DNA of 40,650 bases. It comes from a bacterium (GTDB lineage Bacteria > Patescibacteriota > Minisyncoccia > Phycocordibacterales > UBA9973). A program made the position numbers and the translations under genes. The notes below the pieces were generated by a model, which had not been told where the DNA came from, did not search any database, and worked only from the letters and a program-made list of their open reading frames with translations. Where the stretch lies: the NCBI GenBank assembly GCA_037140115.1, contig JBAXFB010000001.1:1-40650 (forward strand), given 5' to 3'. Numbering within the stretch: the first letter of the stretch is position 1; each line of letters opens with the position of its first letter. Positions 7,503 through 40,650 of this stretch are shown piece by piece.

Positions 7503-10022
7503 ATGTCTATATTTGGAACAATATTTGGTGATGAGAGCTCAAAATTCCTTGGAAGCATTAAGGGAACCGTTGAAAAAATCAATGCTCTAGAAGCTGATGT
7601 TTCAAAGTTCACAGATGCGGACTTTCCAAAGAAAACCCTTGAATTTAAAGATAGATTAACAAAAGGTGAGTCTTTGGACGATATTTTGCCAGAGGCTTTT
7701 GCGTTGGTGCGTGAAGCTTCCAAAAGAAATTTAAACGAAAGGCATTACGATGTCCAGCTCATCGGAGGTATTGCTCTACATAAAGGTAAAATCGCAGAGA
7801 TGCGTACAGGTGAAGGTAAGACTTTAGTGGCAGTGCTTGCTGCTTATTTAAATGCTTTGAGTAGAGAGGGTGTGCATATCATTACAGTGAATGATTATTT
7901 GTCTCGTATTGGTGCTGTGCTGATGGGGCAAGTTTATAATTTTTTAGGCTTGTCAGTGGGAGTTATAAATTCAAATAATGTTTCGTATCTTTATGACTCT
8001 ACCCATAAAGAAGAAGACAAAGAGCGTGATGCAGTCGGTGAATTTAAAGTTGTGTATGATTTTTTAAAACCAACTAGCCGTAAAGAGGCCTATGCTGCAG
8101 ACATTACTTATGGTACAAATCATGAATATGGTTTTGATTATTTGCGCGACAATTTAGCAACGACAGTAAGTGGTTTGGTCCAACGTGCACCAAACTATGC
8201 GATAGTCGACGAAGTAGACTCTATTCTGATAGATGAAGCCAGAACTCCACTTATTATTTCTTCTGCTGCAGGCGACTCTGAAGATTTTTATACAAAGTTT
8301 TATCAAATCGCCAAGCAGATGAAGCGCGACACTGACTATGAAGTTGATGAGAAGTTACGAGCGATTACTTTAACCGATGCAGGCATTAACAAAGCTGAAC
8401 AGCTTTTGGGGGTTGAAAATATTTACACAGAAAAGGGTATCAAGTATGTTCACCATCTAGAGACTGCAGTAAAAGCTCAAGCAATATTTCTGAAAGACAA
8501 AGACTACGTTGTAAAAGATGGTGAAGTTGTTATAGTGGACCCTTCTACTGGTCGTTTACAACCAGGACGACGTTGGTCAGAGGGAATTCATCAGGCGATC
8601 GAAGCAAAGGAAGGAGTCAAAATAGAAAAAGAAACTCGTTCTAGTGGTTCTATAACTTTTCAGAACTATTTTAGATTTTATAAAAAGTTGGGTGGCATGA
8701 CGGGTACGGCACAGACTTCTGCAGAAGAGTTTTTGAAAGTTTACGGCCTGGATGTGATAGTCATTCCAACGCATCGACCGATAGTACGTATGGACCACAA
8801 TGATTTAATCTTTCAAACCGAAAAAGGGAAGTTTCAAGCGATTGCTAAAAAAATAAAAGAATTAAACGCTAAAGAACAGCCGGTCTTGATAGGTACTATA
8901 TCAATTGAGAAAAATGAACTCTTGTCTGTTTATTTAAAGCAAGAAGGTGTACAGCATGTTATTTTGAACGCTAAAAATCACGAGAAGGAAGGAGAGATCA
9001 TAGCGCAAGCAGGTAAAAGAGGGGCAGTTACTATCGCTACAAACATGGCAGGCCGTGGAATCGACATCAAGCTTGGGGGGAATCCACACACACAAGAGGA
9101 TTATGAATTCGTGAAAAACATCGGCGGACTTTTTGTGTTAGGCACAGAAAGGCATGAAGCTCGTCGCATCGACAACCAGCTTCGTGGACGTTCGGGTAGA
9201 CAAGGAGATCCAGGTGATACTCAGTTTTATGTTTCGCTTGAAGATGACCTCATGCGTGTGTTCGGTTCAGATAAAATAAAAACCATGATGGGACGTTTTG
9301 GCATACCGGAAGATCAGCCGATTGAAAACCGTTTCATTGGTAGAACTCTTGAAGGTGCGCAAGCCAAGATCGAAGGATTTCATTTTGATGCTCGTAAAAA
9401 TACTCTTGAGTACGACGACGTTATGAATCATCAGCGTAAAATTATTTACGAACGAAGACAGAAGATGCTAAAGGCTGATAAGGCTGGCATTGAAGCATTG
9501 ATCGAGGACCTTAAGGCGGAACATGAAGGTTTTGACAAAATAGTTGAGGAAAAAAAGAAGAAATTAGGCGAGGCAGAATTTTTCGAAGTTGTGCGTCGTA
9601 TTGCTTTGTACACCACTGACACTCTATGGATGGAACATTTAGAGGTGATGGATTATCTTCGCTCTTCTGTAAACCTGCGTGCTTATGGTCAACGTGAGCC
9701 GATTGTGGAATACAAAAAAGATGGTCTGATGATGTTTAAGCAAATGGAGGAAAGCTTTAAAGAACAAGTTTTTGCTTTGGTTGGCACAATTTCTGAGCCG
9801 GCTAGAACAGAAGAAAATAATATTTCTCAAACTTTAGTCACAAGTCATACTGAACCAAGTGAACTTGGAGGTCCAAAAGACTTGAATGCTGGAGGTGAAG
9901 ACATTGGAAGAAATGACCCATGTCCTTGTGGAGCAATCAACCCAGAAACTGGCGAAGTCTACAAATGGAAAAAGTGCGGAATGATCAACGCTCCACAGCA
10001 TAGGAAGGCGCTTGTAAATTAA
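7503..10022 (+). CDS. secA: Preprotein translocase ATPase SecA
   Basis: 839 aa. MRTGEGKTL Walker A, DEVDSILIDEARTPLIIS, TNMAGRGIDIKLGG, RIDNQLRGRSGRQGDPG. C-terminal Cys-rich tail CPCG...KKCG. Confidence 0.97.
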   Translation: MSIFGTIFGDESSKFLGSIKGTVEKINALEADVSKFTDADFPKKTLEFKDRLTKGESLDDILPEAFALVREASKRNLNERHYDVQLIGGIALHKGKIAEMRTGEGKTLVAVLAAYLNALSREGVHIITVNDYLSRIGAVLMGQVYNFLGLSVGVINSNNVSYLYDSTHKEEDKERDAVGEFKVVYDFLKPTSRKEAYAADITYGTNHEYGFDYLRDNLATTVSGLVQRAPNYAIVDEVDSILIDEARTPLIISSAAGDSEDFYTKFYQIAKQMKRDTDYEVDEKLRAITLTDAGINKAEQLLGVENIYTEKGIKYVHHLETAVKAQAIFLKDKDYVVKDGEVVIVDPSTGRLQPGRRWSEGIHQAIEAKEGVKIEKETRSSGSITFQNYFRFYKKLGGMTGTAQTSAEEFLKVYGLDVIVIPTHRPIVRMDHNDLIFQTEKGKFQAIAKKIKELNAKEQPVLIGTISIEKNELLSVYLKQEGVQHVILNAKNHEKEGEIIAQAGKRGAVTIATNMAGRGIDIKLGGNPHTQEDYEFVKNIGGLFVLGTERHEARRIDNQLRGRSGRQGDPGDTQFYVSLEDDLMRVFGSDKIKTMMGRFGIPEDQPIENRFIGRTLEGAQAKIEGFHFDARKNTLEYDDVMNHQRKIIYERRQKMLKADKAGIEALIEDLKAEHEGFDKIVEEKKKKLGEAEFFEVVRRIALYTTDTLWMEHLEVMDYLRSSVNLRAYGQREPIVEYKKDGLMMFKQMEESFKEQVFALVGTISEPARTEENNISQTLVTSHTEPSELGGPKDLNAGGEDIGRNDPCPCGAINPETGEVYKWKKCGMINAPQHRKALVN

Positions 10023-10053
10023 AATGAATGAACAGAGTTAGTGAAAATTTTTT

Positions 10054-10599
10054 ATGGAAAATAAGGTGGGACAACTAGAGCAATTAGGTAAGTTAGTGCA
10101 ACCATCTCTAGAATATAAAGCTAGTTTTATTGAAGCTATGCGAGAGTTTCAAGCAGAGGGCAAGAAATTAAATATTGATATAGAAGATTTAGAAAATAAT
10201 TTCAATGAGTTCTTGGAAAAAATTGTTAAGGATGATGATCTGCCAGACGATCAAATACCTCAAACGGTACTTTGGCTTGTGGATAGAAATGAATTTATTG
10301 GTAGAGTTTCTGTAAGGCAACAACTAAATGAGCGACTCTTAAAAGAAGGTGGAAATATAGGATATGAAATACGACCTTCAAAAAGAAAATTCGGATATGG
10401 AAGTAAAATTTTAGAATTAGGGTTGCCTATTGCAAAAGGTCTTGGCATACATAAAGTTCTTTTAACTTGCGACGATGACAATGTTGGTTCAGTTAGAATT
10501 ATCGAAAAGAATGGAGGAGTTTTGGATAGAGAAAACCCAAAAATTATTTCCCCGGACAGTGGTAAAAATGTTCGTAGATATTGGATTGAAGTTAAATAA
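10054..10599 (+). CDS. GNAT family N-acetyltransferase
   Basis: IGYEIRPSKRKFGYGSKILELGL and NVGSVRIIEKNGGVL match the GNAT acetyl-CoA-binding core. Confidence 0.75.
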   Translation: MENKVGQLEQLGKLVQPSLEYKASFIEAMREFQAEGKKLNIDIEDLENNFNEFLEKIVKDDDLPDDQIPQTVLWLVDRNEFIGRVSVRQQLNERLLKEGGNIGYEIRPSKRKFGYGSKILELGLPIAKGLGIHKVLLTCDDDNVGSVRIIEKNGGVLDRENPKIISPDSGKNVRRYWIEVK

Positions 10600-10620
10600 T
10601 CTAGTGCTCTTGCTTTTAAT

Positions 10621-10640
10621 TTGTACATTTTGTACAATAT
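10621..10640 (+). promoter_or_regulatory. Tandem TTGTACA boxes (TTGTACAttTTGTACAatat), likely promoter/operator of the TA operon
   Basis: Two copies of TTGTACA (containing the palindrome TGTACA) 2 nt apart, ending in a TACAAT-like -10 element 4-9 nt before ATG 10645. Confidence 0.45.
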
Positions 10641-10644
10641 ACCC

Positions 10645-10893
10645 ATGAACAACATAAAAACACTTTCGACCACAAAATTACGTGAGAATATAAGCGATTT
10701 TATAGATATTGTAGCTACCAGTGGCAGGTCTATTGTACTTGGACGTAGAAACGTTCCAGAAGCGGTTCTCATACCGTTCCCCAATCTTTGGAATGGCAAA
10801 CTATCAGAAATAACAAATATCAATGCATATTCCAAAAGTTTTGATTTTCTTGCTGACGAGCCTGAAATTTACTCAATTAAAGATATAAAATAA
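10645..10893 (+). CDS. Type II antitoxin, Phd/YefM family
   Basis: MNNIKTLSTTKLRENISDFIDIVATSGRSIVLGRRNVPEAVLIPF fits the Phd/YefM N-domain. The track ORF starts at TTG 10621, but ATG 10645 is more plausible. Confidence 0.75.
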   Translation: MNNIKTLSTTKLRENISDFIDIVATSGRSIVLGRRNVPEAVLIPFPNLWNGKLSEITNINAYSKSFDFLADEPEIYSIKDIK

Positions 10894-10895
10894 AT

Positions 10896-11237
10896 ATGCA
10901 TAAGGCTGGTGATATAATTCTAACTCCTTTTCCCTTCACAGATCTTTCAGGAAACAAAGTTCGTCCAGCTTTAGTGCTTGGTGCCCAGAGTGGGGGCGAT
11001 GATGTTACAGTTTGTTTTATTTCATCAAATGTTTCTCAAAAAGTTCACAAGCTTGATGTTTTGGTTGATTCAACGGAAAAAAGTTTTCAAAAGACGGGTC
11101 TTAAGTTGCAATCAATAATTAAGATCACAAAAATCGCTACCCTAGATAAGGCCGTAGTTTTGGGTAAAATTGGCGTTTTGGATGCTGTAAACAGGAAGAA
11201 GGTAAAAGAAGTTTTAGGAATTTATTTTGGGATTTAA
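10896..11237 (+). CDS. Type II toxin, PemK/MazF family endoribonuclease
   Basis: GDIILTPFPFTDLSGNKVRPALVL is the PemK/MazF signature. Starts 2 nt after the antitoxin stop. Confidence 0.8.
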   Translation: MHKAGDIILTPFPFTDLSGNKVRPALVLGAQSGGDDVTVCFISSNVSQKVHKLDVLVDSTEKSFQKTGLKLQSIIKITKIATLDKAVVLGKIGVLDAVNRKKVKEVLGIYFGI

Positions 11238-11285
11238 TTTATCCACACTCAGTACAACAAATACTTGTGTTACAATTAGTAAACT

Positions 11286-12023
11286 ATGCTTCAGTCTTAT
11301 TATGTTCTTAACAATAATAATATTTTGTTAGACAACAAAGGCAAGAGGTATCATTTAAAGATACGTGATTTGCCTATAGAAGATAAGCCTCGTGAGAAAC
11401 TTTTAAAACACGGAGTTGGAGCTTTAACTTTGTCAGAATTGTTGGCCGTGGTTTTAAATACTGGCACAAAGAAAGAAGGAGTTTTGGAAATGTCTCTCCG
11501 CGTCATAAAAGATTACGGAGAGGGTGGCATAATGAGCCAAAAAAATCCTACAGCTTTGTCGAAAGACCTTGATATACCTATTGGAAAATCTCTTCAAATT
11601 GTAGCCTCTGCTGAGCTTGGTCGCAGGTTTTTTGAGAAGAATACAGCGTCACTGCCCACGATTCGAACTGCGAGTGAAGTGTATGAATATGTAAAAGATA
11701 TGCATAGTTTATCAAAAGAACACTTACGCGGTATTTATCTAAATGCTCACTACAAAGTAATTCATAATGAAATTATTTCGATTGGCACTGTGGATGCAAA
11801 CATTATCCATCCACGTGAAGTTTTCAAGCCAGCAGTTGAACATTGTGCTGTGGCCTTGATCCTTGTGCACAACCATCCATCTGGAGTAACTAGTCCAAGT
11901 GAAGCTGATTTGTCGATAACATCTCAGCTTGTTGCGGCCGGCAAATTGCTCGGGGTAGATCTGATCGATCATGTTATTGTTACTAAAGATTCATTTGCAA
12001 GTGTGCCCGTGCTTTACCATTAA
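11286..12023 (+). CDS. radC: RadC-like JAB domain protein (UPF0758)
   Basis: C-terminal JAMM-like motif LILVHNHPSGVTSPSEADLSIT. N-terminal helix-hairpin-helix-like LSELLAVVLNTGTK. Confidence 0.85.
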   Translation: MLQSYYVLNNNNILLDNKGKRYHLKIRDLPIEDKPREKLLKHGVGALTLSELLAVVLNTGTKKEGVLEMSLRVIKDYGEGGIMSQKNPTALSKDLDIPIGKSLQIVASAELGRRFFEKNTASLPTIRTASEVYEYVKDMHSLSKEHLRGIYLNAHYKVIHNEIISIGTVDANIIHPREVFKPAVEHCAVALILVHNHPSGVTSPSEADLSITSQLVAAGKLLGVDLIDHVIVTKDSFASVPVLYH

Positions 12024-12048: not shown

Positions 12049-12372
12049 ATGAATAGTTATCAAGATCAGTTATATTCAATAAGTTCACCTAAGTTTTGGC
12101 TTGTGAATGACAGGCCCGACAGTGCAAAGTATTTGACAGCAGAAGATAACAAGGCCCACATGAAAAGTTTGTTGTTCCACGTTTCTAAAGGGGATTATCT
12201 TTCTACTTTGTCTACCGTGCTGAGATTCTTTGAAGAATCTATAAAAAATAAAGAAATAACTCCCGAAATGACAGACCTTGAACTGAAAACTATCAAAATA
12301 GCCATGAGTGACCTTTTGTATTTAAATGACAACTATGATTTAGTGCTTAAGAAAGAGAATAAGCAGAAATAA
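12049..12372 (+). CDS. Hypothetical protein
   Basis: 107-aa ORF fills the gap between radC and murE. No motif recognised. Confidence 0.5.
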   Translation: MNSYQDQLYSISSPKFWLVNDRPDSAKYLTAEDNKAHMKSLLFHVSKGDYLSTLSTVLRFFEESIKNKEITPEMTDLELKTIKIAMSDLLYLNDNYDLVLKKENKQK

Positions 12373-12379
12373 GTGATTA

Positions 12380-13651
12380 ATGATGAAAAAGTTTAATTAT
12401 AAAAATTTTAAACGACGGCTTATAAATAACCTTTTAGGTTTTCACTTTTTTCGCGATCCTTACAAGAAATTAAAAATTATTGCAGTCACGGGCACAAATG
12501 GCAAGACGACGACAGCCACGCTTCTATATAAAATTGCCACAGAGCTGGGATATAAAACAGCATTGATAAGTACTGTGGAAAACATTATTGGCTCGCGGGA
12601 TAATATAATTCCGCATAGTGCAAAAGGTCCAGGTACGACTCCTGACCTGACTTATTTAAATAAGCTTTTAAAAGCCGCTGTTAAGTACGGTTGTGAGTAT
12701 GTTTTTATGGAAGCGACATCGATTGCCTCGGATCAAGACAGATTTGCGGGTATAAATTTTGCTGGTGGAATTTTTACAAACCTGACTCACGATCATTTGG
12801 ATTATCACAAAACTTTTGAGAATTATTTCGGTGCCAAAAAAAGATTTTTCCAAAAACTAGGTAAGCATGCTTTTGCTCTCACGAATGCTGATGATGAATA
12901 TGGACTAAAGATGCTGGAGGGGATACATGCGCACTCATTTTCTTACGGTTTTAATCAAAATTTTGATAAAGTACTTTTCCATGGAGAAATTAAAAAATCC
13001 AGTTTTGATGGTTTAGATCTTTCTTTTAACAAGATTGATTTGAGCACCAAACTTCTCGGTAAATTTAATGCATACAATCTCCTTGCTGTTTGGAGTGCGT
13101 GTTCTTTACTTGGTTTTGATATGGATAGAGTTAATAAAATAATAGAAAACATAGAGCCACCGCGTGGCAGGTTCCAACACTTTACTTCGAAAAGTGGCGT
13201 ACTTTCTATTGTTGATTATGCTCATACGCCAGATGCTCTCGAAAAAATCCTAACAGCAATAAAAGAAGTTGCGGAAGTCGGACTTCCGCAAAAGGGTAGA
13301 ATAATTTCTGTTTTTGGTTGCGGTGGGGATCGTGATCCGCTCAAACGTCCAGTCATGGGGCTTGTGGGTGCAAATCTTTCTGATATTGCAATTTTTACTT
13401 CAGACAATCCGCGAAGTGAAGATCCAGATAAAATTCTGCATCAAATGACAGAAAAATTATCACCAGAAGAAATTAAAAAAGTGAAAACAATTCCAGACAG
13501 ACGTGAGGCAATCATCGAAGCTGTAAAGTTGGCCCAAAAAGGGGATGTTATACTAGTGGCAGGTAAAGGCCACGAAGATTATCAAGAAATAAATGGAGTC
13601 AAGAACCATTTTGATGATATGGAGGAATTGAAAAAACTTTACTTAGAATGA
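12380..13651 (+). CDS. murE: UDP-N-acetylmuramoyl-tripeptide synthetase MurE (short N-terminus)
   Basis: IIAVTGTNGKTTTA P-loop, NLTHDHLDYH, VDYAHTPDAL, GCGGDRD, SDNPRSEDP are typical of MurE. Confidence 0.85.
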   Translation: MMKKFNYKNFKRRLINNLLGFHFFRDPYKKLKIIAVTGTNGKTTTATLLYKIATELGYKTALISTVENIIGSRDNIIPHSAKGPGTTPDLTYLNKLLKAAVKYGCEYVFMEATSIASDQDRFAGINFAGGIFTNLTHDHLDYHKTFENYFGAKKRFFQKLGKHAFALTNADDEYGLKMLEGIHAHSFSYGFNQNFDKVLFHGEIKKSSFDGLDLSFNKIDLSTKLLGKFNAYNLLAVWSACSLLGFDMDRVNKIIENIEPPRGRFQHFTSKSGVLSIVDYAHTPDALEKILTAIKEVAEVGLPQKGRIISVFGCGGDRDPLKRPVMGLVGANLSDIAIFTSDNPRSEDPDKILHQMTEKLSPEEIKKVKTIPDRREAIIEAVKLAQKGDVILVAGKGHEDYQEINGVKNHFDDMEELKKLYLE

Positions 13652-15012
13652 TTCTACTAAATCACATGTCTAATTTTAAACAAATTTTCAAAGATAAAAA
13701 GATAACTGTCATAGGCTTGGGCTTGCTTGGGCGAGCCTCCGGCGATACCGCTTTTTTCGCTGAATATGGTGCGGATTTGATCGTTACAGATTTAAAAACT
13801 AGTGAACAGCTGAAAGATTCTTTGAAAAAGTTAGAAAAATATAAAAATATAAAATATGTTTTAGGTGAACACAGACTGGAGGATTTTAGAGGGAGAGATT
13901 TTATTTTAAAGACGGCAGGGGTCCCAATCGATTCTTTATATATACAAGAAGCGGAGAAAAATAATATTCCGGTAGAAATGAGCGCGGAGCTTTTAGTTAG
14001 ACATTCTGGTTTGCCAACTGTGGCGGTGACCGGTACACGAGGCAAATCCACAGTTACACATTTAATTTCACACATTTTAAAGTCTGCAAATAAAAAAATA
14101 ATTTTAGGTGGAAACGTACGAGGTGTTTCAAATTTGCAGTTGCTAAAAGAAGTACAAGGCAAAGATTTTTTAGTATTGGAGCTCGATTCGTGGCAGCTTC
14201 AAGGTTTTGGGGCTAAAAAAATTTCTCCAAATGTCTCTGTTTTTACGACCTTTTTTCCTGATCATATGAATTACTATAAAGGTAGTATGGAGAAATATTT
14301 TGCAGATAAAGCAAATATTTTCAAATTTCAACATAAAAAAGATCTATTGGTGGTCGGGTCACAGGCAATGCCTTTTGTTTCAGAGTGGGGTGGGGAAATA
14401 AAAAGCGAAGTTGTAACCCCAGAAGGTGTGTTGCCAGAGGGGTGGAAATTTAATTTACCAGGTGCTCATAATGAATACAATGCCATGCTGGCGGTAGAAG
14501 TGGCTAGGCATTTAGGCATTCCAGATGAAAAGATTAAAAAAGCTCTTAATGATTTCGAGTCTCTTTCAGGTCGTCTGCAGTTCTTGCGAGAAGTTAATGG
14601 AATAAAAATATATAACGATAATAGCTCGACTACTCCAGATGCGACTATTGCAGCGTTGAAAGCCGTTGGGGATATCACAGAACGTAAAGTGATTCTTGTT
14701 TTCGGTGGTGATAATAAATTTTTATATATGTCGGCGCTTATTTCTGAAATTCCAAAATTTTGCTCGAAAGTTATTTTATTTAAAGAACGAGGTACAGACC
14801 TTATTCGAGACAAGGTGTTTGAACTTAACAAGAAAGGTGTGGAGGTTTACGAAGAAGAAGGTTTGGAAAATACTATTAAACGAGCTTTTCAAGTTGCAAA
14901 AAGCGGTGAGACTATTTTATATAGTCCAGCATTTTCGTCTTTTGGAAAATATTTTACTAATGAATATGATAGGGGAGATCAATTCGTAAAAATCGTAGAA
15001 AGTTTAAAGTAG
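13648..15012 (+). CDS. murD: UDP-N-acetylmuramoylalanine--D-glutamate ligase MurD
   Basis: N-terminal Rossmann-like VIGLGLLG, VTGTRGKSTVT P-loop, Mur ligase C-domain. ATGA overlap with murE. Confidence 0.85.
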   Translation: MILLNHMSNFKQIFKDKKITVIGLGLLGRASGDTAFFAEYGADLIVTDLKTSEQLKDSLKKLEKYKNIKYVLGEHRLEDFRGRDFILKTAGVPIDSLYIQEAEKNNIPVEMSAELLVRHSGLPTVAVTGTRGKSTVTHLISHILKSANKKIILGGNVRGVSNLQLLKEVQGKDFLVLELDSWQLQGFGAKKISPNVSVFTTFFPDHMNYYKGSMEKYFADKANIFKFQHKKDLLVVGSQAMPFVSEWGGEIKSEVVTPEGVLPEGWKFNLPGAHNEYNAMLAVEVARHLGIPDEKIKKALNDFESLSGRLQFLREVNGIKIYNDNSSTTPDATIAALKAVGDITERKVILVFGGDNKFLYMSALISEIPKFCSKVILFKERGTDLIRDKVFELNKKGVEVYEEEGLENTIKRAFQVAKSGETILYSPAFSSFGKYFTNEYDRGDQFVKIVESLK

Positions 15013-19838: not shown

Positions 19839-19865
19839 CCCACTTGGCGGTTTAACCGCCAAGTG
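19839..19865. repeat. REP-like palindrome copy 1 (ccCACTTGGCGGTTtAACCGCCAAGTG)
   Basis: 25-nt perfect palindrome with 12-nt arms, 13 nt upstream of the Y1 transposase ATG. Confidence 0.85.
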
Positions 19866-19878
19866 CTAAAATAAACTC

Positions 19879-20397
19879 ATGAGAAGAGTGCCACTTGCAA
19901 CTGGGGAAATTTACCACATCTTTAATAGAGGAGTCGACAAGAGAAAAATTTTTTCTGATCAAAAAGACCTGGATAGATTTTTTGAAAGTATTTTAGAGTT
20001 CAATAACATCGAGCCAATTGGAAGTTTGTTTGAAAAGAGTTTCCAGAAAGACAAAATTAAAAAGCCTCTCGTGGAATTTGTAGCATATAATATTTTGCCG
20101 AACCATTTTCATTTCGTTTTGAAACAAGTTTCTGAAAACGGCATCAGTGAATTCATGAAGCGCCTCTTGGGAGGTTATACGTGGTATTTCAATCATAGGC
20201 AAAAGAGATCTGGCTCCTTATTTCAAGGAACTTTTAAAAGCAAGCATATAGATTCCAACGAATATCTTTTACATGTGAGCGTCTACGTAAATTTGAACGA
20301 CAAAATCCCACTTGGCGGTTTAACCGCCAAGTTGAACAAATCGAGCTGGAATGAGTATGTAAATCCGGATTTAGTTAATAATTATGAACGAATATGA
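19879..20397 (+). CDS. IS200/IS605-type Y1 (HUH) transposase-like protein, REP-associated tyrosine transposase (RAYT/COG1943-like), interrupted by an in-frame TGA
   Basis: YHIFNRGVDKRKIF, HUH motif LPNHFHFVL, GSLFQGTFKSKHIDSNEYLLHVSVYVNLN with catalytic-Tyr context. Homolog-like sequence continues in the same frame after TGA 20395-20397 up to TAG 20515-20517. Confidence 0.8.
   Translation: MRRVPLATGEIYHIFNRGVDKRKIFSDQKDLDRFFESILEFNNIEPIGSLFEKSFQKDKIKKPLVEFVAYNILPNHFHFVLKQVSENGISEFMKRLLGGYTWYFNHRQKRSGSLFQGTFKSKHIDSNEYLLHVSVYVNLNDKIPLGGLTAKLNKSSWNEYVNPDLVNNYERI
20307..20333. repeat. REP-like palindrome copy 2, inside the transposase CDS (encodes PLGGLTAK)
   Basis: ccCACTTGGCGGTTTAACCGCCAAGTt, 24 of 25 nt identical to copy 1. 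Confidence 0.85.
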
Positions 20398-20517
20398 TAT
20401 GGCAAAGATATCATCCTCGATCAGTTTGACTCAACTGAAGACTATAAAAAATTTGCTTTTTCTTCTTTGGAAGACATACGGCTCAATAAAGAAAGTTATA
20501 AAGAGCTGGAAGAATAG
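20398..20517 (+). other. In-frame post-TGA continuation of the RAYT-like ORF (YGKDIILDQFDSTEDYKKFAFSSLEDIRLNKESYKELEE*)
   Basis: Same reading frame as 19879-20397. Resembles the usual C-terminal tail of this protein family. Confidence 0.6.
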
Positions 20518-20543
20518 CCACTTGGCGGTTTAACCGCCAAGTA
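20517..20543. repeat. REP-like palindrome copy 3
   Basis: gcCACTTGGCGGTTTAACCGCCAAGTa, immediately after TAG 20515-20517. Confidence 0.85.
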
Positions 20544-21541: not shown

Positions 21542-24013
21542 ATGAAAAAAAAACAAGAAGAATCAAATAAAGAAGTTGCAATCACAGATAAAATTTTGCC
21601 AGTGGATGTTGTGACTGAGATGAAAGAGTCGTATTTGGCGTATGCCATGTCTGTTATCACTTCACGTGCGCTTCCGGACGTGCGTGACGGACTAAAACCT
21701 GTGCATAGAAGAATTTTGTATGCCATGCATGAGATGGGTCTTACGGCTTCTGCTCGTTTTCGTAAATCTGCTGCAGTAGTGGGAGATGTGCTCGGAAAAT
21801 ATCATCCTCATGGAGACGTCGCGGTGTATGATTCTATGGTGGGAATGGCGCAAGAATTCTCTTATCGTTATCCTTTTATTTTAGGACAAGGAAACTTCGG
21901 TTCGATTGATGGCGACAATGCAGCCGCAATGCGTTATACCGAAGCAAAGATGTCCAAGATCTCTGGTGAGCTTTTGCGAGATCTTGAAAAAGAAACTGTT
22001 GATTTTCGTCCAAACTATGACCAGACTCGTAAAGAGCCAATTGTGTTTCCATCATCTGTGCCTGCGCTTCTTTTAAACGGAACCCTTGGTATCGCTGTTG
22101 GTATGGCGACAAACATTCCTCCGCACAACTTGGCAGAAGTTTTGGATGCGACAAAGCATTTGATAGAAAATGAAGATGCGACCACTGAAGACCTGATGCA
22201 ATTCATTAAAGGTCCAGATTTCCCGACTGGTGGTATTGCTTATGGCCATAAAGATATGTTGCATGCCTACTCAGGCGGACGTGGTGGAGTAGTCACCAGA
22301 GGTGAGGCAGAGATCGTGGAACAAAAGGATGGCAACTTTTCTATCATCATTACTTCGATTCCTTTTCGTGTGAACAAATCAAACTTGATCATGGCTATCG
22401 CTGAGCTTGTACAAGAAAAGAAGCTTGAAGGCATAAAGGGTTTGCGTGATGAATCTGCGAAAGATATTCGTATAGTGATTGATTTGAAGTCTAGCGCTCA
22501 TCCAGAAAAAGTTTTAAATTATATTTACAAAAACACTCAACTTGAATCAAATTTCAACTTCAACATTGTGGCATTGGTGGATGGTGTGCCGCAGACTTTA
22601 TCGCTCAAGTCTATCCTTGAGCAATTCGTGCTTCACAGGAGGGAAGTTGTAAAGAGACGCACCGCTTATGATCTCAGGCGAGCAGAAGAACGAGAACACA
22701 TCTTGCTTGGTTTGAAAAAAGCGCTCGATAAGATAGACCGTGTTATCACTATCATCCGTTCTTCAAAGAATTCTCAAATCGCGAAAGTAAACTTAATGAA
22801 AGAGTTTAAGTTTTCTGATTTACAGGCGACAGCTATCTTGGAAATGAAGTTGGCAAAGCTTGCGGGGCTTGAACGCAAGGCCGTCGAAGATGAATTAGCA
22901 GAAAAGCAGAAATTTATTGCAGAAATGAAAGAGATTTTGGCAAGCCCAAAGAAGGTCTTAAAAATTATTGTAGATGAATTGGTAGAAATCCGTACAAAAT
23001 ATGCTGACGAGCGACGCACAAAGATAGTAAAAGGTGGCGTTAAGGAGATTTCTGACGAAGACTTGGTGCCAGAAAAGGAAACTATGCTAGTACTCACTGC
23101 TGGTGGTTATGTAAAGTGTACTGATCCATCAGAATATCATGCACAAAAGCGCGGAGGTGTGGGTGTCATAGACCTAGAAACCAAAGAAGAAGACTTTGTG
23201 ACTATGCTCGTCTCTGGTTCTACACACAGCAATCTCTTGTTCTTTACCAACCTAGGTAAAGTTTACCAAATGAAAATGTACGATATTCCAGAAGGCCGCA
23301 GAGCTACTCGTGGTAAATCTATCATGAACTTCCTTTCTCTGGGTGGGGAAGAAAAAGTTAATTCTATTTTAGCAATGCCCAAGGAGGACAAGAATATAGA
23401 TAAATCTCCGGCCTCCTTAATGCTTGTGACCAAAAATGGTACAGCGAAAAAAATGTCTTCTGAGAGTTTCAAGGATGTGCGTCGCAGTGGCATCATCGCT
23501 ATTCGTTTAGACAAAGACGATCAGCTCATTTCTGCGTTGGTCACAGAAAAGGGTGATGAAGTTATGATCGCGACTGGTGACGGACAGTCCATACGCTTCA
23601 AAGAATCTGATATCAGAGAGATGGGCAGGACTGCTGGTGGAGTGCGTGGAATAAAATTAGATAAAGACGATGCTGTCATAGGCGTGGACGTTGTGAAAAA
23701 GGGTAGCGAGAAGGGTGCGTTTTTGACGATGAGTGCAAATGGTTTTGGAAAAAAGACTGATCTTAAAGAATATAAAGTTCAAAATCGTGGTGGTTCAGGT
23801 ATCAAGACTGCAAAAGTTACTCCAAAAACAGGTCAGCTTATCGTGGCAAAAGTTTTGACTGGCGAAGAAGCGGAATTAATCGCAATGTCTAAAAAAGGCC
23901 AAGTCATTCGGACAGCTTTGAAAGATATTTCTTCTCTTGGACGTCAGACACAAGGTGTCACCATCATGCGACTTCGCGGTGGGGATGGAATCGCATCGTT
24001 GGCATGTATTTAA
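21542..24013 (+). CDS. gyrA: DNA gyrase subunit A
   Basis: [28 protein letters not shown], active-site AAMRYTE, C-terminal beta-pinwheel repeats. Confidence 0.97.
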
Positions 24014-24015
24014 TT

Positions 24016-24105
24016 CTCCTCTTGAGGAGTACTCCGACCTAGGTCGGAGGGAGGTGGACGAATTTATCCACCCCGTCTCGCAAGCGAGCCACCCCTCAAG
24101 AGGGG
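24016..24105. repeat. 90-nt GC-rich multi-hairpin intergenic element
   Basis: Five consecutive hairpins: CTCCTCttGAGGAG, CTCCGACCtaGGTCGGAG, GGTGGAcgaatttaTCCACC, CTCGCaaGCGAG, CCCCTCaaGAGGGG. The terminal hairpins are inverted-repeat-like. GC-rich in an AT-rich background. Confidence 0.7.
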
Positions 24106-24125
24106 AATATGTTACAATTAACCTC

Positions 24126-34552: not shown

Positions 34553-35323
34553 ATGGGTTACAGCAAAACTATTATTAGTGGAAATAATTTAGAAAGAACT
34601 GACTATGAAAAAGACGTCATCAGTTTGGGAAGAAGCACAGGAAACAGGAAGACTACTCCTGCAACTGAGAATATGGGAACTAGCGGAAAAGATACACTTT
34701 CGGAAAGGGACAGTGCCACAACATTGGGGAAGCGACGAGACAACGCACAACGCTCTAGTGTGGCTTTCCGAAGGATCGTTGCATCTAACCTCGGAGGACT
34801 TACACGCCCTCTACTGGTTACTCTTACCTACCGAGATAATTTCACAGACCTTAAAGGAAGCTATAAGCATTTCTCATCTTTTATCCAATCTCTACGCTAT
34901 AAATTCGGAAAAGATTTTAAATACATCAGTGTCCCAGAATTTCAAAAGCGTGGAGCAGTTCATTTTCACGCTCTCTTCTGGGGGTTACCCGAGGGAATAT
35001 TTTTACAAGAACGGAAAACTAGAACACTTGCCGAACTTTGGGCAAGGGGTTTTGTTTATTTAAAAGAAACTGACGGCAATGAAAAATTATCTTTTTATTT
35101 ATCAAAATATATGGCAAAAGCATTCATAGACCCAAGACTAAAAAATCAGAAATGCTATGTTGCTTCTCGTAACATTCAAAGACCAACAGTTATTGTCGGT
35201 GCTTCTCCTCTTTGGGTTATTCTTGAGGATTATGGAATTACTGACGAGCCATTAATTGATAGAGAATATCCGACAAAATATTTAGGCAAAGGTCGGTATA
35301 GGTTATTTAAAATTCCAAAATGA
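34553..35323 (+). CDS. HUH-superfamily rolling-circle replication initiator (two-tyrosine type, phiX174 gpA / Microviridae VP4-like motifs)
   Basis: Motif 1 LVTLTY, motif 2 (HUH) GAVHFHALFWG, motif 3 YLSKYMAK (Y-x-x-K-Y-x-x-K, two catalytic Tyr spaced as in phiX174 gpA YVAKYVNK). Confidence 0.75.
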   Translation: MGYSKTIISGNNLERTDYEKDVISLGRSTGNRKTTPATENMGTSGKDTLSERDSATTLGKRRDNAQRSSVAFRRIVASNLGGLTRPLLVTLTYRDNFTDLKGSYKHFSSFIQSLRYKFGKDFKYISVPEFQKRGAVHFHALFWGLPEGIFLQERKTRTLAELWARGFVYLKETDGNEKLSFYLSKYMAKAFIDPRLKNQKCYVASRNIQRPTVIVGASPLWVILEDYGITDEPLIDREYPTKYLGKGRYRLFKIPK

Positions 35324-35505
35324 TCAGCCTTGAAGACCTAAAAAGAATAGAGCCTAAACTTCAAGGGAAGTCTGACGAGGAATTAACAAAAATCCGTAAT
35401 TTATTATATGGTTTAGGTCAATTAACTTTGGAAACATATTTAGAAAGAAAAAGTGGTTCCAAATTTCCCGTTGGGGTATATGGACTTAATAATGAGGATA
35501 TGTAA
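35320..35505 (+). CDS. Hypothetical 61-aa protein
   Basis: ATGA overlap with the Rep stop. No motif recognised. Confidence 0.4.
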   Translation: MISLEDLKRIEPKLQGKSDEELTKIRNLLYGLGQLTLETYLERKSGSKFPVGVYGLNNEDM

Positions 35506-35509
35506 AAGT

Positions 35510-37057
35510 ATGGATATGCAAGAAAACAAAAATGCAATAATCTATGTCCGTGTGTCTTCTAGTGAACAAGTAGACGGCACAAGCTTAGAATCTCAAGAAA
35601 GATTTTGCAAAGAATACGCTCAAAAAGAAAACTTAAATATTCTTTCAATTTTCATTGAAAAAGGTGAATCGGCTAAAACTGCTGACCGCACGGAATTTAT
35701 AAAAGCCATTAGTTTTTGCTCCGATAAGAAAAACAAAGTTAGCTATTTTATTGTTGCTAAAATTGATCGTTTTTCTAGGAACCAAACCGACTATGCTATA
35801 GTCAAACAAAAACTACAAAAGTATGGAACGGAAATCAGATCAGTCTCGGAAAAAATTGACGATACGCCATCGGGTAAGTTGATGGAAGTTATGCTCTCTG
35901 GCTTTGCTGAATTTGATAACAACATCAGAACTGAAAGAAGTGTTAATGGTATGAAAGAACGCTTAAAACAGGGCGTATGGGTCTGGCAAGCTCCTCTAGG
36001 CTACTATCGGACTGAAAAGGGTGGAAATATCACTCCTGACCCTAAAACCGCTCCGTTTATAAAAATGGTGTTTGAAGAATATGCTAAGGGAACTTACACT
36101 TTTGAATCTTTAGCTAGGTTCTTAAAAGAAAAAGGTTTTGTTTCTCGCTATGGTAGAACTGTAATTTCCCAGACGATAGAAAAAATAATCAAGAATCCAA
36201 TTTACTGCGGAATAATTAAAGTTTGGGATAATGAAAGCAAAGGAACTTTTAAACCGATTATCAGTGAGAATCTTTTTTACCTTTGCCAAAAAGACGGCAG
36301 AAGGGATAGGGGTAAATTACACTTCGTAAAGAACCCCGATTTTCCACTTAGGAATTTAGCCACTTGCCAATTTTGTGGCGATCCTTTAACTGGTAGTCAT
36401 TCAACAGGGCGTAAAGGCAAACGCTATCCATATTACCACCACCATAAAGTTAATTGTGATTATGCAAAGTCTATTCCTAAAGAAAATTTTGAGCAGATAT
36501 TTGTTGAATATTTGAATGAAATAAATCCTAGTATTGAATATGAAAAAGCTTTCAAAGCTATCGTTATTGATATTTGGAAAAATAACTGTAAGGGTTTTAA
36601 CAATCAGAACGAGGCTCTTAGAAAAGAAATTAAAGAACTGGAAAATAGTAAGCAACATATTTTTGATTTACACCAAAGTGGTGTTTATGACGACACTGAT
36701 TTCACTACTCAGAAAAATATTGTCTGTAAAAAGATTGCTCAAAAAGAAAGTTTAATTCACGACAAAAGAATCCAAGAATTTAATATGGAAGAAGCCTTAG
36801 AATTTTGTTTTGATACAGTTCGCCATAGTGCAAGGTCTTGGGTTGAATACGAGAAAGAACCTGAGAAAAGAATCCGATTCCAAAATTTTATATTTGAGGA
36901 AAATCTGCCTTATGCTGAAAACAAATTTGGAACCGCAAAGTTAACGCCTATTTACAGCGTATATCAACAATACTTAGTGAATCCATCTAACTTGGTGCGT
37001 CCAGCAGGGATCGAACCTGCGACCTTATCCTTAAGAGGGATCTGCTCTACCAGCTGA
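35510..37057 (+). CDS. Large serine recombinase (integrase)
   Basis: AIIYVRVSSSEQ (catalytic Ser), IVAKIDRFSRN, recombinase domain, zinc-ribbon-like CQFCGDPLTGSHS...YYHH, coiled-coil C-terminus. The start is chosen after the stop of the 61-aa ORF (the track start 35453 overlaps it). The last ~21 codons are antisense to tRNA-Lys. Confidence 0.85.
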   Translation: MDMQENKNAIIYVRVSSSEQVDGTSLESQERFCKEYAQKENLNILSIFIEKGESAKTADRTEFIKAISFCSDKKNKVSYFIVAKIDRFSRNQTDYAIVKQKLQKYGTEIRSVSEKIDDTPSGKLMEVMLSGFAEFDNNIRTERSVNGMKERLKQGVWVWQAPLGYYRTEKGGNITPDPKTAPFIKMVFEEYAKGTYTFESLARFLKEKGFVSRYGRTVISQTIEKIIKNPIYCGIIKVWDNESKGTFKPIISENLFYLCQKDGRRDRGKLHFVKNPDFPLRNLATCQFCGDPLTGSHSTGRKGKRYPYYHHHKVNCDYAKSIPKENFEQIFVEYLNEINPSIEYEKAFKAIVIDIWKNNCKGFNNQNEALRKEIKELENSKQHIFDLHQSGVYDDTDFTTQKNIVCKKIAQKESLIHDKRIQEFNMEEALEFCFDTVRHSARSWVEYEKEPEKRIRFQNFIFEENLPYAENKFGTAKLTPIYSVYQQYLVNPSNLVRPAGIEPATLSLRGICSTS

Positions 37058-37068
37058 GCTATGGACGC
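36993..37068 (-). tRNA. tRNA-Lys (anticodon CUU), CCA encoded
   Basis: Reverse complement GCGTCCA-TA-GCTC-AGCTGGTA-GAGC-A-GATCC-CTCTTAA-GGATA-AGGTC-GCAGG-TTCGATC-CCTGC-TGGACGC-A-CCA. Confidence 0.93.
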
Positions 37069-37323: not shown

Positions 37324-37360
37324 CTCCCCCTTGATAAGGGGGAGAATCAAAGAGGGGGTC
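37324..37360. repeat. GC-rich hairpin element (CTCCCCCTT-gat-AAGGGGGAG ... GAGGGGGTC), same family as the in-frame elements; may double as the rbfA terminator
   Basis: 9-bp G/C-rich stem 26 nt downstream of the rbfA stop. Core architecture (CTCC..CTT-nnn-AAG..GGAG then a G-rich tail) is shared with 38323-38412 and 40250-40308. Confidence 0.55.
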
Positions 37361-37703: not shown

Positions 37704-39263
37704 TTATTTTTGGGCTATTGAGAATAATTCAATGACGTCGCCTGAAGCAACTTCGATCTTGGATTCGATCATCATGCCGAACTCTAGACCTTCTTCGACT
37801 ATGCTAGTTTTTACCTTACCTTTTTCAAGATTCACTATTTTGCCACGACCTATCTCGAAATCTCGGCGCATGATCTTCACATTGCCGTTAAGAAGCATTT
37901 GACCTTCGATAACTTTACCACCGATAATCTGGCGTTCCTTTGTGCGGCTGAAAGCACGGATGATCTTGGCACGGCCAGTCGTCTCCACTGTCTCGACTCT
38001 TGGTCGTCTTTTCTCCATTTCTTCTTCGAGCCATTCGGTCATTTTATAAATTACATTGAATGAAGAAATCGTGATTCCTTGATTTTCAGCAACTTCGATG
38101 GCACTCTTGTCGGCTTTGACGTTGAATCCGATGACGATGACGCTCTCACTATTCGCGAGATTCTTGATGTCAGACAGAGTGATGGGTCCGACACCTTTGC
38201 TGATAATCTTAAACACGGCACTTTCGCTATTTACACCCTTGCATTTGATTTTAGATATTTCTTTTTCGATAGCTTCGAGTGATCCCGCGACGTCAGCCTT
38301 TATTAGTATTGGGATTATTTTTTTACCACCCCCAGCCCCCTCCTTCACAAGGAGGGGAGTAAATTTATCTCCTCCTGTTTTAGGAGGAGTGCCCAAGGGG
38401 CGAGGTGGTAAATTTTCAGCATATTCCAAGGCCTCTTTTTTATTTTTGAAACTTTTAAAAGGAGCGCCGACTTGTGGCATCTTGTCGAATCCACAAAGTC
38501 GTACAGGAGAAGAAGGGCGGGCGCTATCGATCATGGCTCCTTTGAAGTCTTGAATCATACGAGTCGATACTATCGCATCTTCCACTACCACAGTCATACC
38601 TTTGGTCATTACTCCATTTTTTATGATCAGTGTCGCTTGGATTCCACGTTTTGAATCCAAGTCAGCTTCGATCACAAAGCCTGAAGCGCCTTCTTCTGTA
38701 CTTTCGGTAAAACTTTCCATTTCAGCTAAAATTAGAATTAAAGATAGCAAATTGTCTACGCCAGTTCCGACTTTTGCGGAGATTTCTGCAAAGGGGATTT
38801 TGCCTCCATAATTTTCTAAATAAATTTCTTTTTCTGCTAATTCTTGTTTGGTTTTTTCTACGTTGGCGTTTGGTTTGTCGATTTTGTTGATGGCGACGAT
38901 CACAGGGAGCTTCGCTTCGACGATAGTCTTCCAAGCTTCTATCGTTTGTTGTTTGACGCCATCTTCTGCTGATACGACGAGAATGGCAATGTCTGCTATG
39001 TTTGCTCCTCGCTCACGCATTTTAGAAAAAGCTTCATGTCCAGGAGTGTCTAGGAAAGTGATCTTGCAATCTTTACCTGCATCATCTTTATGTACAACTT
39101 CGTAGGCGGAGATGTTTTGGGTAATGCCTCCAGCTTCATTGTCAGTAATGTTTGTCTTTCTGATGTAGTCGAGCAAGGTAGACTTACCATGGTCAATATG
39201 CCCCATCACTACGACGACGGGTGAACGCGGAACAATATTTTGTTTTTTATTTTTTTCACTCAT
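37704..39263 (-). CDS. infB: Translation initiation factor IF-2 (short form lacking the N-terminal extension)
   Basis: G-domain VVVMGHIDHGKSTLLD, DTPGHEAF, NKID. C1/C2 domains ILIKADVAGSLEAI. Contains a 30-codon GC-rich insert. Confidence 0.95.
   Translation of the reverse strand: MSEKNKKQNIVPRSPVVVVMGHIDHGKSTLLDYIRKTNITDNEAGGITQNISAYEVVHKDDAGKDCKITFLDTPGHEAFSKMRERGANIADIAILVVSAEDGVKQQTIEAWKTIVEAKLPVIVAINKIDKPNANVEKTKQELAEKEIYLENYGGKIPFAEISAKVGTGVDNLLSLILILAEMESFTESTEEGASGFVIEADLDSKRGIQATLIIKNGVMTKGMTVVVEDAIVSTRMIQDFKGAMIDSARPSSPVRLCGFDKMPQVGAPFKSFKNKKEALEYAENLPPRPLGTPPKTGGDKFTPLLVKEGAGGGKKIIPILIKADVAGSLEAIEKEISKIKCKGVNSESAVFKIISKGVGPITLSDIKNLANSESVIVIGFNVKADKSAIEVAENQGITISSFNVIYKMTEWLEEEMEKRRPRVETVETTGRAKIIRAFSRTKERQIIGGKVIEGQMLLNGNVKIMRRDFEIGRGKIVNLEKGKVKTSIVEEGLEFGMMIESKIEVASGDVIELFSIAQK
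38323..38412. repeat. ~90-nt GC-rich palindromic element with 8-9 bp terminal inverted repeats, inserted in frame in infB
   Basis: TTACCACC...GGTGGTAA termini. Inner hairpins CCCCTCCTT-cac-AAGGAGGGG and CTCCTCCT-gtttt-AGGAGGAG. Central AAATTTATC. Encodes LPPRPLGTPPKTGGDKFTPLLVKEGAGGGK on the minus strand. Confidence 0.75.
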
Positions 39264-39746: not shown

Positions 39747-40650
39747 ATGCCCAAATCAAATGAAAATTCTGGAAAGAAAGGCCGAAAAATATATATGGAT
39801 TATGCATCTAGCGCTATTTCTTCTGTTGCGAACCCTGGAGCCATCCATGAACTTGGCGTCAAAGAGAAAAATAAGCTAGAAGTCGCTCGCAAGACAGTGG
39901 CTACGATATTACACGCTCATGCAAATGAGATAGTCTTCACCTCTGGGGCCACTGAAAGTAATAATTTGGCGATTTTGGGCTTGGTTCGTAATTTTAAAAA
40001 TCCGCACATTGTAACTACAAATATAGAACACGCGTCTGTGCTTGAAGTTTTTAAATATTTAGAAAACACCAAGCAAGCTGAAGTGACATATGTACCTGTC
40101 GAAGCAAGCGGGATTGTTGATGTAAATAAAATTAAAAAAGCATTAAAGCAAAATACTGTGCTGGTGTCAGTGATGTATGCCAATAATGAGATAGGTACCG
40201 TGCAGCCCATCAGGGAAATTGCCAAAGAGATTCGGCATTTTAGAAAGACACACCTCACCCGCCTTCGACACCCTCTCCTTAACAAGGAGAGGGTTGGGGA
40301 GAGGTTCCCTTTTTTTCATACAGACGCAACTCAAGCGGTAAATTATTTACCTATCAAGGTGGAAGTGCTTGGTGTAGACATGATGTCTTTTAATGCAGCG
40401 AAAATCTATGGACCGAAAGGTGTTGGCGTTTTGTATCTGAAAAAAAAAACGTCACTTGTGCCGATCATGTTTGGCGGAAATCAAGAATTTGGTTTACGCC
40501 CAGGTACAGAGAGTGTGGCGTTGGCTATCGGGCTCGCCAAAGCTCTCGAGCAGGTGGAAAAAATAAAAGAGAAAGAAGTGGTGAGATTAACCAAACTTAG
40601 AGATTATTTCATAAATAAAATTACTAAAAACTCTGCGATCGCAGAAAAAT
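39747..40650 (+). CDS. Cysteine desulfurase (NifS/IscS/class V aminotransferase family), partial, runs off the right edge
   Basis: Hand translation: MPKSNENSGKKGRKIYMDYASS...FTSGATESNNLAILG...TTNIEHASV...SVMYANNEIGTVQPI...FFHTDATQA...SFNAAKIYGPKGVGVLY...GGNQEFGLRPGTES. Absent from the ORF track, probably because there is no stop inside the window. An alternative start is ATG 39795. Confidence 0.85.
   Translation, partial: MPKSNENSGKKGRKIYMDYASSAISSVANPGAIHELGVKEKNKLEVARKTVATILHAHANEIVFTSGATESNNLAILGLVRNFKNPHIVTTNIEHASVLEVFKYLENTKQAEVTYVPVEASGIVDVNKIKKALKQNTVLVSVMYANNEIGTVQPIREIAKEIRHFRKTHLTRLRHPLLNKERVGERFPFFHTDATQAVNYLPIKVEVLGVDMMSFNAAKIYGPKGVGVLYLKKKTSLVPIMFGGNQEFGLRPGTESVALAIGLAKALEQVEKIKEKEVVRLTKLRDYFINKITKNSAIAEK
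40250..40308. repeat. ~57-60-nt GC-rich hairpin element in frame in the cysteine desulfurase gene
   Basis: CCCTCTCCTT-aac-AAGGAGAGGG core (40271-40293) flanked by ACCTCACCC / GGGGAGAGGT. Encodes THLTRLRHPLLNKERVGERF just before the conserved FHTDA motif. Confidence 0.7.

Follow-up and report, generated by a model that had tools for sequence, protein, structure and literature searches.

The repetitive extragenic palindromic (REP) units of enterobacteria, which make up the bacterial interspersed mosaic elements (BIMEs), are extragenic by definition and linked to RAYT transposases. The mitochondrial genomes of fungi contain double-hairpin elements. The GC clusters of yeast mitochondria are mobile DNA (PMC4478555), and transposable elements of the miniature inverted-repeat kind (MITEs) located within bacterial genes include ERIC/RU-1 and the 107-bp form of the Correia element (PMC2229807, PMC2759123). 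Rickettsia palindromic elements (RPEs) are palindromes of 105–146 bp with terminal inverted repeats, found both between genes and in frame in 19 conserved protein genes (PMC2229807), and the RPE insert in Gmk is tolerated (PMC2229807, reviewing Ogata et al. 2000). Here we describe a composite palindromic element, e1, located in frame in infB, the gene for translation initiation factor IF-2, in a 40,650-nucleotide stretch of DNA (positions 1 to 40,650 of contig JBAXFB010000001.1, assembly GCA_037140115.1; hereafter the window) from a bacterium of the Patescibacteriota (Minisyncoccia; Phycocordibacterales; UBA9973). We consider it very probable that e1 is a copy of a dispersed, non-autonomous and GC-rich palindromic mosaic repeat family of the Nomurabacteria, which works like the RPEs.

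The window is AT-rich (37.6% G+C). The features of the infB element are listed below, where Y and X denote its two half-units; e2 stands for an intergenic element at 24010-24112, and labels such as L004, L009 and L201 denote individual comparison loci or contigs.

37704-39263, minus strand: infB, encoding IF-2 (519 amino acids), the host gene of e1.
38322-38412, minus strand: e1, arrangement Y-X, in frame in infB, supported by the repeat finder, RNA folding and homologous Y-X copies in other genes that were aligned and folded.
38365-38412, minus strand: half-unit Y, with the terminal motif TTTACCACCTCGCC, the small hairpin GCCC-CTT-GGGC and hairpin A, ACTCCTCCT-aaaac-AGGAGGAG.
38359-38364, minus strand: AT-rich junction between Y and X, which belongs to GATAAATTTACT (columns 57-75 in the alignment of Y-X copies).
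38322-38358, minus strand: half-unit X, with hairpin B, CCCCTCCTT-gtg-AAGGAGGGG, and then GCTGGGGGTGGTAAA, the right terminal motif.

An earlier note on this stretch had drawn attention to a GC-rich 90-nt segment at 38323-38412 with terminal inverted repeats and two perfect hairpins, and all of these were recovered by the repeat finder where that note had placed them. The segment has a G+C content of 54%, against 37.6% for the window, and ranks in the top 0.8% of 90-nt windows, which is a clear but not an extreme enrichment. On the plus strand, positions 38322-38412 read TTTACCACC CCCAG CCCCCTCCTTcacAAGGAGGGG AGTAAATTTAT CTCCTCCTgttttAGGAGGAG TGCCCAAGGGGCGA GGTGGTAAA, with a 9-nt terminal inverted repeat that is 100% complementary (TTTACCACC at 38322-38330 and GGTGGTAAA at 38404-38412). 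The first hairpin is CCCCTCCTT-cac-AAGGAGGGG at 38337-38357 and the second is CTCCTCCT-gtttt-AGGAGGAG at 38369-38389; both are perfect, the repeat finder returned one 9-bp and one 8-bp inner hairpin, and the centre of the element is AAATTTATC. In 200 dinucleotide shuffles, no fold was as stable as that of the sense-strand RNA, at -52 kcal/mol (z = -5.94). The fold consists of a closing stem that encloses three hairpins, namely the small GCCC-CUU-GGGC and two long ones. A search of Rfam at gathering thresholds gave no match at 38322-38412 or at 24010-24112. The half-unit Y was also matched by a Y profile at 38365-38413 (E = 5e-14), and the junction between Y and X corresponds to a variable filler between these half-units in other copies (alignment columns 57-75). 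The element supplies 30 codons (38411-38322) that preserve the infB frame and read LPPRPLGTPPKTGGDKFTPLLVKEGAGGGK, of which Y accounts for LPPRPLGTPPKTGGD and X for TPLLVKEGAGGGK, and KIIPILIKADVAG comes directly after, which agrees with the earlier description of about 30 in-frame codons in the IF-2 linker just before the C1 domain.

Evidence for a repeat family comes from metagenomes, which were scanned with a single pattern for the left half (Y) of e1. At least 120 contigs were matched, with 128 matches listed. About 95% of the listed matches are located outside infB; six of the 128 were flagged as infB by tblastn, at least one of which (L150) is actually in FtsK, and a few are chance matches on contigs of high G+C content. 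On the low-GC contigs, 56 copies lie within long open reading frames (ORFs), about 52 are intergenic and 17 are located near ORF ends. The intragenic copies are all open in the frame of the host gene, and they are oriented 46 sense versus 10 antisense, as compared to 32 versus 20 for the intergenic copies. Hosts confirmed by Pfam are TopA, MnmA, UvrB, PheT, PurD, Tgt, the CCA-adding enzyme, FtsK, GcpE/IspG and LigA, with two copies each in ftsK and uvrB, and FtsK orthologues differ in presence or absence at two sites. Exact protein matches gave NCBI source names for four of the host proteins, all of them Candidatus Nomurabacteria or Patescibacteria, and the family therefore resides in the lineage of the window itself. 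Judging by the names that the IF-2 homologues and the species-representative contigs described below carry, the window comes from a Nomurabacteria/Paceibacterota bacterium of the candidate phyla radiation (CPR). Long contigs contain about 0.55 extra copies per 10 kb once the selecting copy has been subtracted, and some have up to four copies within about 10 kb. GC-rich perfect hairpins are abundant as a class, with 239 in 1.23 Mb (the window and the 80 infB loci introduced below) versus 23 after block shuffling. The earlier note had taken e1 for a MITE/REP-like mobile repeat; dispersed copies are there, both intergenic and in frame, whereas their movement is something that we infer from this distribution. 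Searches of protein databases were uninformative, as the 44-aa composite peptide yielded no candidate, probably because the query was too short and low in complexity, and the zero matches of the 30-aa insert among protein representatives should likewise not be taken as evidence of absence. An assembly artefact is ruled out by the presence of the same elements in many independent assemblies.

Inspection of the copies in all six frames revealed no stop codons, which fits the AT-rich make-up of these codons, so that a copy with a length that is a multiple of three keeps the gene open. The commonest frame encodes the Pro/Gly-rich peptide PPRPSGTPPQKGGE, PLLxKEGVGGG, without hydrophobic residues. 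Intact ORFs make use of PPRPSGTPPQKGGE, TSPFGHSSSTRRR, HLALKG... and, in antisense, SPPxxGGVPxGRGG. The excess of the Pro/Gly frame in the coding as compared to the intergenic copies is most simply explained by selection that removes less tolerable insertions.

The family is built from half-units of roughly 40-50 nt. The consensus of Y is AATYACCNCCTCGC, the small hairpin and then GCACTCCYCCT-n5-AGGRGGAG-AGGAA, in which CTCCYCCT/AGGRGGAG forms hairpin A, and the consensus of X is TTCCT-CCCCTCCTT-n3/4-AAGGAGGGG-n-GGGGTGGTRATT, in which CCCCTCCTT/AAGGAGGGG forms hairpin B. Among 100 distinct copies, 42 have the order X-Y and 17 the order Y-X, while 41 consist of Y alone by the criteria applied, and the filler varies in length at both kinds of junction. 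In the X-Y copies, which have a consensus length of 108 nt and end in about 14 nt of TTCCTCCCCTCCTT / AAGGAGGAGAGGAA, the terminal motifs GGTGGTRATT...AATYACCACC pair as a central hairpin, whereas in the Y-X form found in infB the same motifs pair as the outer stem; e1 is therefore a circular permutation of the commoner X-Y arrangement. A larger module, CTCCGACCnnnGGTCGGAG, can stand in for the small hairpin, and the same 18-mer is present in the second element of the window, which is located as follows.

24010-24112, plus strand: e2, with five GC hairpins, intergenic, directly after the gyrA stop codon.

The earlier note had described an intergenic element of the same length and design at 24016-24105 with five GC hairpins, and the relationship holds. 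Although blastn detected no similarity between e1 and e2, their kinship emerged from common modules and profile searches: the module CTCCGACCTAGGTCGGAG is common to e2 and elements of the e1 type, and the profile of e2 matches reverse-complemented X-Y copies. The order in both is hairpin A, the small hairpin, the central GGTGG/CCACC hairpin, an optional hairpin and hairpin B. The element contains a GAATTTATC loop, has a G+C content of 61% (top 0.06% of windows) and a terminal repeat of 18 nt that is 89% complementary, and folds as DNA with z = -5.5. Elements of this type occupy three settings (nhmmer E-values of 1e-26 to 1e-28): the window copy follows gyrA, that of L063 follows an unrelated TIG-domain gene, and that of L009 lies in frame in infB. 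Furthermore, the position immediately after the gyrA stop codon is taken by e2 in the window and by a Y-X element in a metagenome contig (L173:1026-1131), and on the contigs L106 and L135 Y is joined to parts of e2. Judging from these modules and profiles, e1 and e2 belong to one mosaic superfamily in which e2 is a variant of the X-Y architecture.

We examined the infB linker in an alignment of 120 IF-2 homologues (69-88% identity, lengths of about 500-530 aa) and in the nucleotide sequences of 80 species-representative loci around infB, which together with the window amount to 1.23 Mb. The linker ahead of KKIIPI is hypervariable in both length and sequence. The motif LPPRPxGTPPxxGGE(xxTPLLxKEGxGGG)KK has a patchy distribution among the relatives, in full or half form, and there are two further recurring motifs, WKNLVVGVPLGTPTTKS and SPLEEYPxGGGG...ATPQEG. 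In a neighbour-joining tree of IF-2 constructed without the linker, the element types are interspersed and the protein of the window clusters with relatives that carry no element. The earlier note had allowed for the possibility that relatives share the linker as protein without the palindromes; the alignment brought out no common palindrome-free linker, and similar peptides come with nucleotide palindromes. Thus, linkers of the LPPRP type have the same palindromes as e1, the SPLEEY-type linker of L009 is the homologue of e2, in frame in infB, and the WKNLVV-type linker is a single perfect 19-bp hairpin in frame with the peptide WKNLVVGVPLGTPTTKS. In total, six kinds of hairpin element are found in the infB linker across species, including other strong hairpins in L005 and L018, while the majority of linkers are AT-rich and unstructured.

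L004:10645-10686, L012:2716-2757 and L011:10860-10901: 19-bp hairpin in the infB linker, peptide WKNLVVGVPLGTPTTKS.

The arms of the 19-bp hairpin differ among these loci by fully compensated changes, and no further copies of it were found in the window and locus DNA searched. Its ends in L004, L012 and L011 are the ends, ACTTGG/CCAAGT, of a 26-nt palindrome, CCCACTTGGCGGTTTAACCGCCAAGT, of which the window has three copies (19839-19864, 20307-20332 and 20517-20542). The closest relative, L201 (P0002), with 88% amino acid and 80% nucleotide identity in infB, is without e1 and also without two other hairpins of the window, in an aminotransferase gene and after rbfA. Between the window and distant infB genes, e1 is 74-89% identical, as compared to just 66-71% for the flanking conserved coding DNA. 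We also considered whether the AT-rich linkers may be decayed remnants of the element; the signal was not significant at infB (z = -1.25) or at FtsK site 2 (z = 1.2), and at FtsK site 1 it was marginal (z = 2.1, p = 0.04). One locus, L003, has two convergent infB-rbfA units (10001-11545, plus, and 12302-13828, minus) with proteins that are 79% identical, one with a Y-type element and the other with an AT-rich linker; either the duplication is genuine or two strains were assembled into a chimera.

Profile and BLAST searches of the 80 loci also revealed an X-like nested hairpin in frame in the neighbouring aminotransferase gene of seven genomes. This hairpin and two further units are listed below.

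40262-40310, plus strand: X-like nested hairpin, CCCTCTCCTT-aac-AAGGAGAGGG, with flanking arms of the GGGTGAGG / CCTCTCCCC type, in frame in a class-V aminotransferase gene.
37324-37344, minus strand: solitary unit of the hairpin-A type, CTCCCCCTTATCAAGGGGGAG, downstream of rbfA.
L019:15981-16040: GC-rich double hairpin carried in frame by gyrB between its Toprim and its C-terminal domain, a homologue of the infB-linker element of L018.

At the position of the aminotransferase hairpin (about 40262-40310 in the window) L201 has a 45-nt alignment gap. Hairpin A of the L031 infB element has exactly the sequence of the unit CTCCCCCTTATCAAGGGGGAG after rbfA. Perfect hairpin pairs of the TTCGGACGT-tgg/cca-ACGTCCGAA type were also seen in the class-V aminotransferase gene of L045 (8650-8692) and L049 (6594-6635), at a position that differs from that of the X-like element; the host gene was confirmed by Pfam in L045 and inferred from an ORF of similar size in L049.

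Among the described systems, the RPEs offer the closest parallel. Both are short palindromic elements with terminal inverted repeats in a small AT-rich genome, both occur between genes as well as in frame in conserved housekeeping genes (56 intragenic and about 52 intergenic copies in this family), and both seem to be tolerated as inserts and have no known associated transposase. However, the hosts are Patescibacteria rather than Alphaproteobacteria, the half-units measure about 40-50 nt and the composites about 90-110 nt, as compared to the 105-146 bp of the longer RPEs, and the family is a multi-hairpin mosaic of single units and both permuted orders instead of one long stem-loop, G+C-rich with polypyrimidine/polypurine arms. 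We have set homology aside on the basis of host, length and architecture, without a comparison to the RPE consensus sequences, and suggest by analogy that the family is not a member of the RPEs but works like them. With BIMEs and REPs it shares the mosaics of small GC-rich palindromic units in varied order and orientation with variable short linkers, as illustrated by the 42 X-Y, 17 Y-X and 41 Y copies, but about half of the copies lie inside intact ORFs and are thus not extragenic, and no RAYT- or IS200-like gene was seen in about 2 Mb, which is a weak test. The GC clusters and double hairpins of fungal mitochondria are similar in being GC-rich hairpins in an AT-rich genome that are polymorphic between relatives and occasionally located in coding sequence with the frame unbroken; they are, however, sequence-unrelated elements of eukaryotic organelles, whereas the present family resides in many essential bacterial genes. 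Intragenic MITEs are likewise non-autonomous, with terminal inverted repeats, which are 9 bp long and perfect in e1, and ORFs capable of in-frame fusion to host genes. A TA target-site duplication is usual in those MITEs, which derive from identifiable insertion sequence (IS) families; here, no duplication was found in the flanks of 39 X-Y copies, and no parent IS in a weak tblastn test of about 2 Mb. Our literature search returned no report of palindromic or MITE-like elements in the CPR or Parcubacteria, although such a description may still exist. The family thus apparently represents an undescribed, RPE-like kind of element in a further phylum, built as a mosaic.

The Pfam domains of the protein are GTP_EFTU (residues 16-177), EF-G_D2, which is domain II (193-269), and IF-2 C1 (312-410), and the insert encoded by e1 corresponds to about residues 285-314, between domain II and C1. 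An AlphaFold2 model based on 57 homologues (mean predicted local distance difference test, pLDDT, of 76) depicts residues 290-312 as a coil without secondary structure and with pLDDT below 50, flanked by a helix at 275-283 and a strand at 315-323. The insert is thus predicted to fall in a disordered linker. Most likely the infB copy is translated, and the naturally variable linker tolerates it as a disordered tether. If e1 is translated, peptides such as TGGDKFTPLLVK are expected.

The very low z-scores of e1 and e2 also suggest another explanation, which is that the infB site requires a functional structure in the mRNA or DNA, for example an attenuator, a translational pause that comes between domain II and C1 and aids folding, or an element for RNase action or stability, for which any stable hairpin would do. 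This could account for the presence of different strong hairpins at the same linker site depending on the species (e1-type, e2-type, 19-bp and those of L005 and L018), for the higher conservation of e1 than of the flanking coding DNA and for the GGAGG-type, Shine-Dalgarno-like runs in the arms. We nevertheless find it unlikely, because most IF-2 relatives, including the closest one, have AT-rich unstructured linkers and because members of the same sequence family are found in intergenic DNA and, in either orientation, in many other genes. Furthermore, the stems are nearly without G-U pairs or covariation, as expected of young DNA repeats but not of conserved RNA. Hairpin B stems contain 497 Watson-Crick pairs, 2 G-U pairs, 1 A-C pair and 16 other mismatches, and the one stem position of hairpin A that the search pattern did not fix has a T-A pair in 73 and a C-G pair in 22 of the 100 copies, with no pairing in the other 5. 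Nineteen Y-X copies from different genes are near-invariant, with loops that vary, stems that do not and palindromes that are perfect at synonymous positions; RNAalifold predicted 28 pairs in these, with a covariation term of -0.55 and compensated changes at 4 of the 28, and as noted above Rfam gave no match. A comparison of G-U with A-C pairs as a strand-specific test of selection on the RNA was uninformative, since there were too few such pairs (2 vs 1), and the compensated changes in the arms can be explained by template switching within the palindrome, without selection. Invariant and perfect stems, along with an identity of e1 above that of its flanks, are more in keeping with a DNA repeat that is young or homogenised than with a structured RNA of old age.

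It is also conceivable, if improbable, that a protein module was selected, that is, a Pro/Gly-rich tether or interaction motif spread by recombination, with the palindromes as a by-product of the symmetry of PP/GG codons. The peptide is found in many essential enzymes, and the coding copies are biased (46 sense vs 10 antisense, intergenic 32 vs 20), mostly toward the PPRPSGTPPQKGGE frame, but purifying selection against less tolerable frames explains this bias equally well. About half of the copies are intergenic, the TSPFGHSSSTRRR, HLALKG... and antisense SPPxxGGVPxGRGG frames also occur in intact ORFs, and the loops vary next to constant stems, with palindromes that are perfect at synonymous positions. 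The compact and very stable fold, with its ends joined by a terminal stem, could instead hint at an intervening sequence that is absent from mature IF-2, through removal from the mRNA or a ribosomal bypass like the hop in gene 60 of phage T4. We regard this as highly improbable, since the frame is open over 30 codons, as it is in all 56 intragenic copies, and stop codons, a pair of take-off and landing codons, features of introns or inteins and an Rfam match are all missing; an intein or intron was rejected outright, given the small size, the open frame and the absence of a match at gathering thresholds. Finally, the hypervariability of the linker among relatives might invite the idea of a chance feature in a low-complexity region, the probability of which we consider negligible: it is already refuted by the shuffle test, the profile matches (E-values of about 1e-14 to 1e-31) and the more than 100 homologous copies elsewhere.

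We therefore favor the interpretation of e1 as a copy of a dispersed palindromic mosaic repeat. The family would consist of DNA that is selfish or neutral, spreads or is exchanged as DNA and persists inside genes, with half-units Y and X that may stand alone or be joined in either order. Possible means of movement are a trans-acting transposase, recombination mediated by the hairpins and gene conversion among copies, and the recurrence of different elements at the same sites might possibly reflect site preference, selective filtering or recombinational replacement between copies.

Several observations weigh against this interpretation. Opposite 84 nt of e1, L201 has an unrelated AT-rich sequence of 69 nt (z = -1.25 versus shuffles), and linkers without the element are of similar length rather than 30 codons shorter. 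A clean empty site was not found, as the sites without the element hold a different AT-rich sequence of similar length. The earlier view of a 30-codon insertion is thus correct in that the frame is kept, but not in its implication of a clean addition, since a linker of similar length is replaced. Several unrelated hairpins use the same infB site in other species, and it could be the infB site rather than the element that is special. In the 40-kb window, which has just related units, blastn-short with e1 detected no second full copy, and full Y units are confined to infB in the window and the 80 infB loci (1.23 Mb), which means that the copy number in this genome may be low. The flanks of 39 X-Y copies have no target-site duplication and are unconserved beyond the terminal motifs, and tblastn with an IS200 TnpA query, which is a weak test, detected no transposase in about 2 Mb. 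Finally, we infer the translation of the insert and its neutrality from open frames and from a location that is predicted to be disordered.

A more far-reaching hypothesis, to which we attach only tentative belief, is that the Nomurabacteria, and perhaps other CPR bacteria, have a still active and undescribed system of modular GC-rich hairpin cassettes that time and again enter or are exchanged at the same permissive sites in essential genes, among them the linker of infB, the gyrA 3' end and the two sites in ftsK. On this hypothesis, the permuted Y-X and X-Y orders and the mixing of e1 and e2 modules would point to an unusual mechanism other than classical cut-and-paste transposition, and candidates could include a recombinase directed by hairpins or cruciforms, an intermediate in circular or tandem form, or gene conversion that replaces cassettes. 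If this is true, such cassettes would, after AT-biased decay, be a major source of lineage-specific linkers and insertions in the housekeeping proteins of the CPR.

The window contains a few other features. A LOOT RNA motif (RF03000; 33388-33497, minus strand; 80.8 bits versus a gathering threshold of 46.4 in Rfam) is located just upstream of the genes of what resembles a small element integrated at a tRNA gene (34553-37068). The latter comprises a gene for a rolling-circle Rep protein (Pfam REP_ORF2-G2P, 34553-35323) and a gene for a large serine recombinase (35453-37057), the 3' end of which overlaps tRNA-Lys (36993-37068, minus strand); no att direct repeats were found around it. The 3' end of the 16S rRNA gene is located at positions 1-159 and is followed by protein-coding ORFs instead of a 23S gene.

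Rickettsia is the best-documented case of palindromic repeats that invade essential genes in frame, and an unrelated, apparently undescribed family in the CPR implies that the phenomenon recurs in small, AT-rich genomes of host-dependent bacteria. How small palindromes move without a recognisable transposase is a question for which this family is well suited, given the modular, permuted build of its elements and their recurrence at the same sites. Repeats of this kind affect gene calling, protein alignments and phylogenetic markers such as IF-2, GyrA/B and UvrB, and add spurious Pro/Gly-rich low-complexity segments to protein databases. For the CPR bacteria themselves, the family would provide a concrete source for the many lineage-specific insertions and variable linkers in their proteins.

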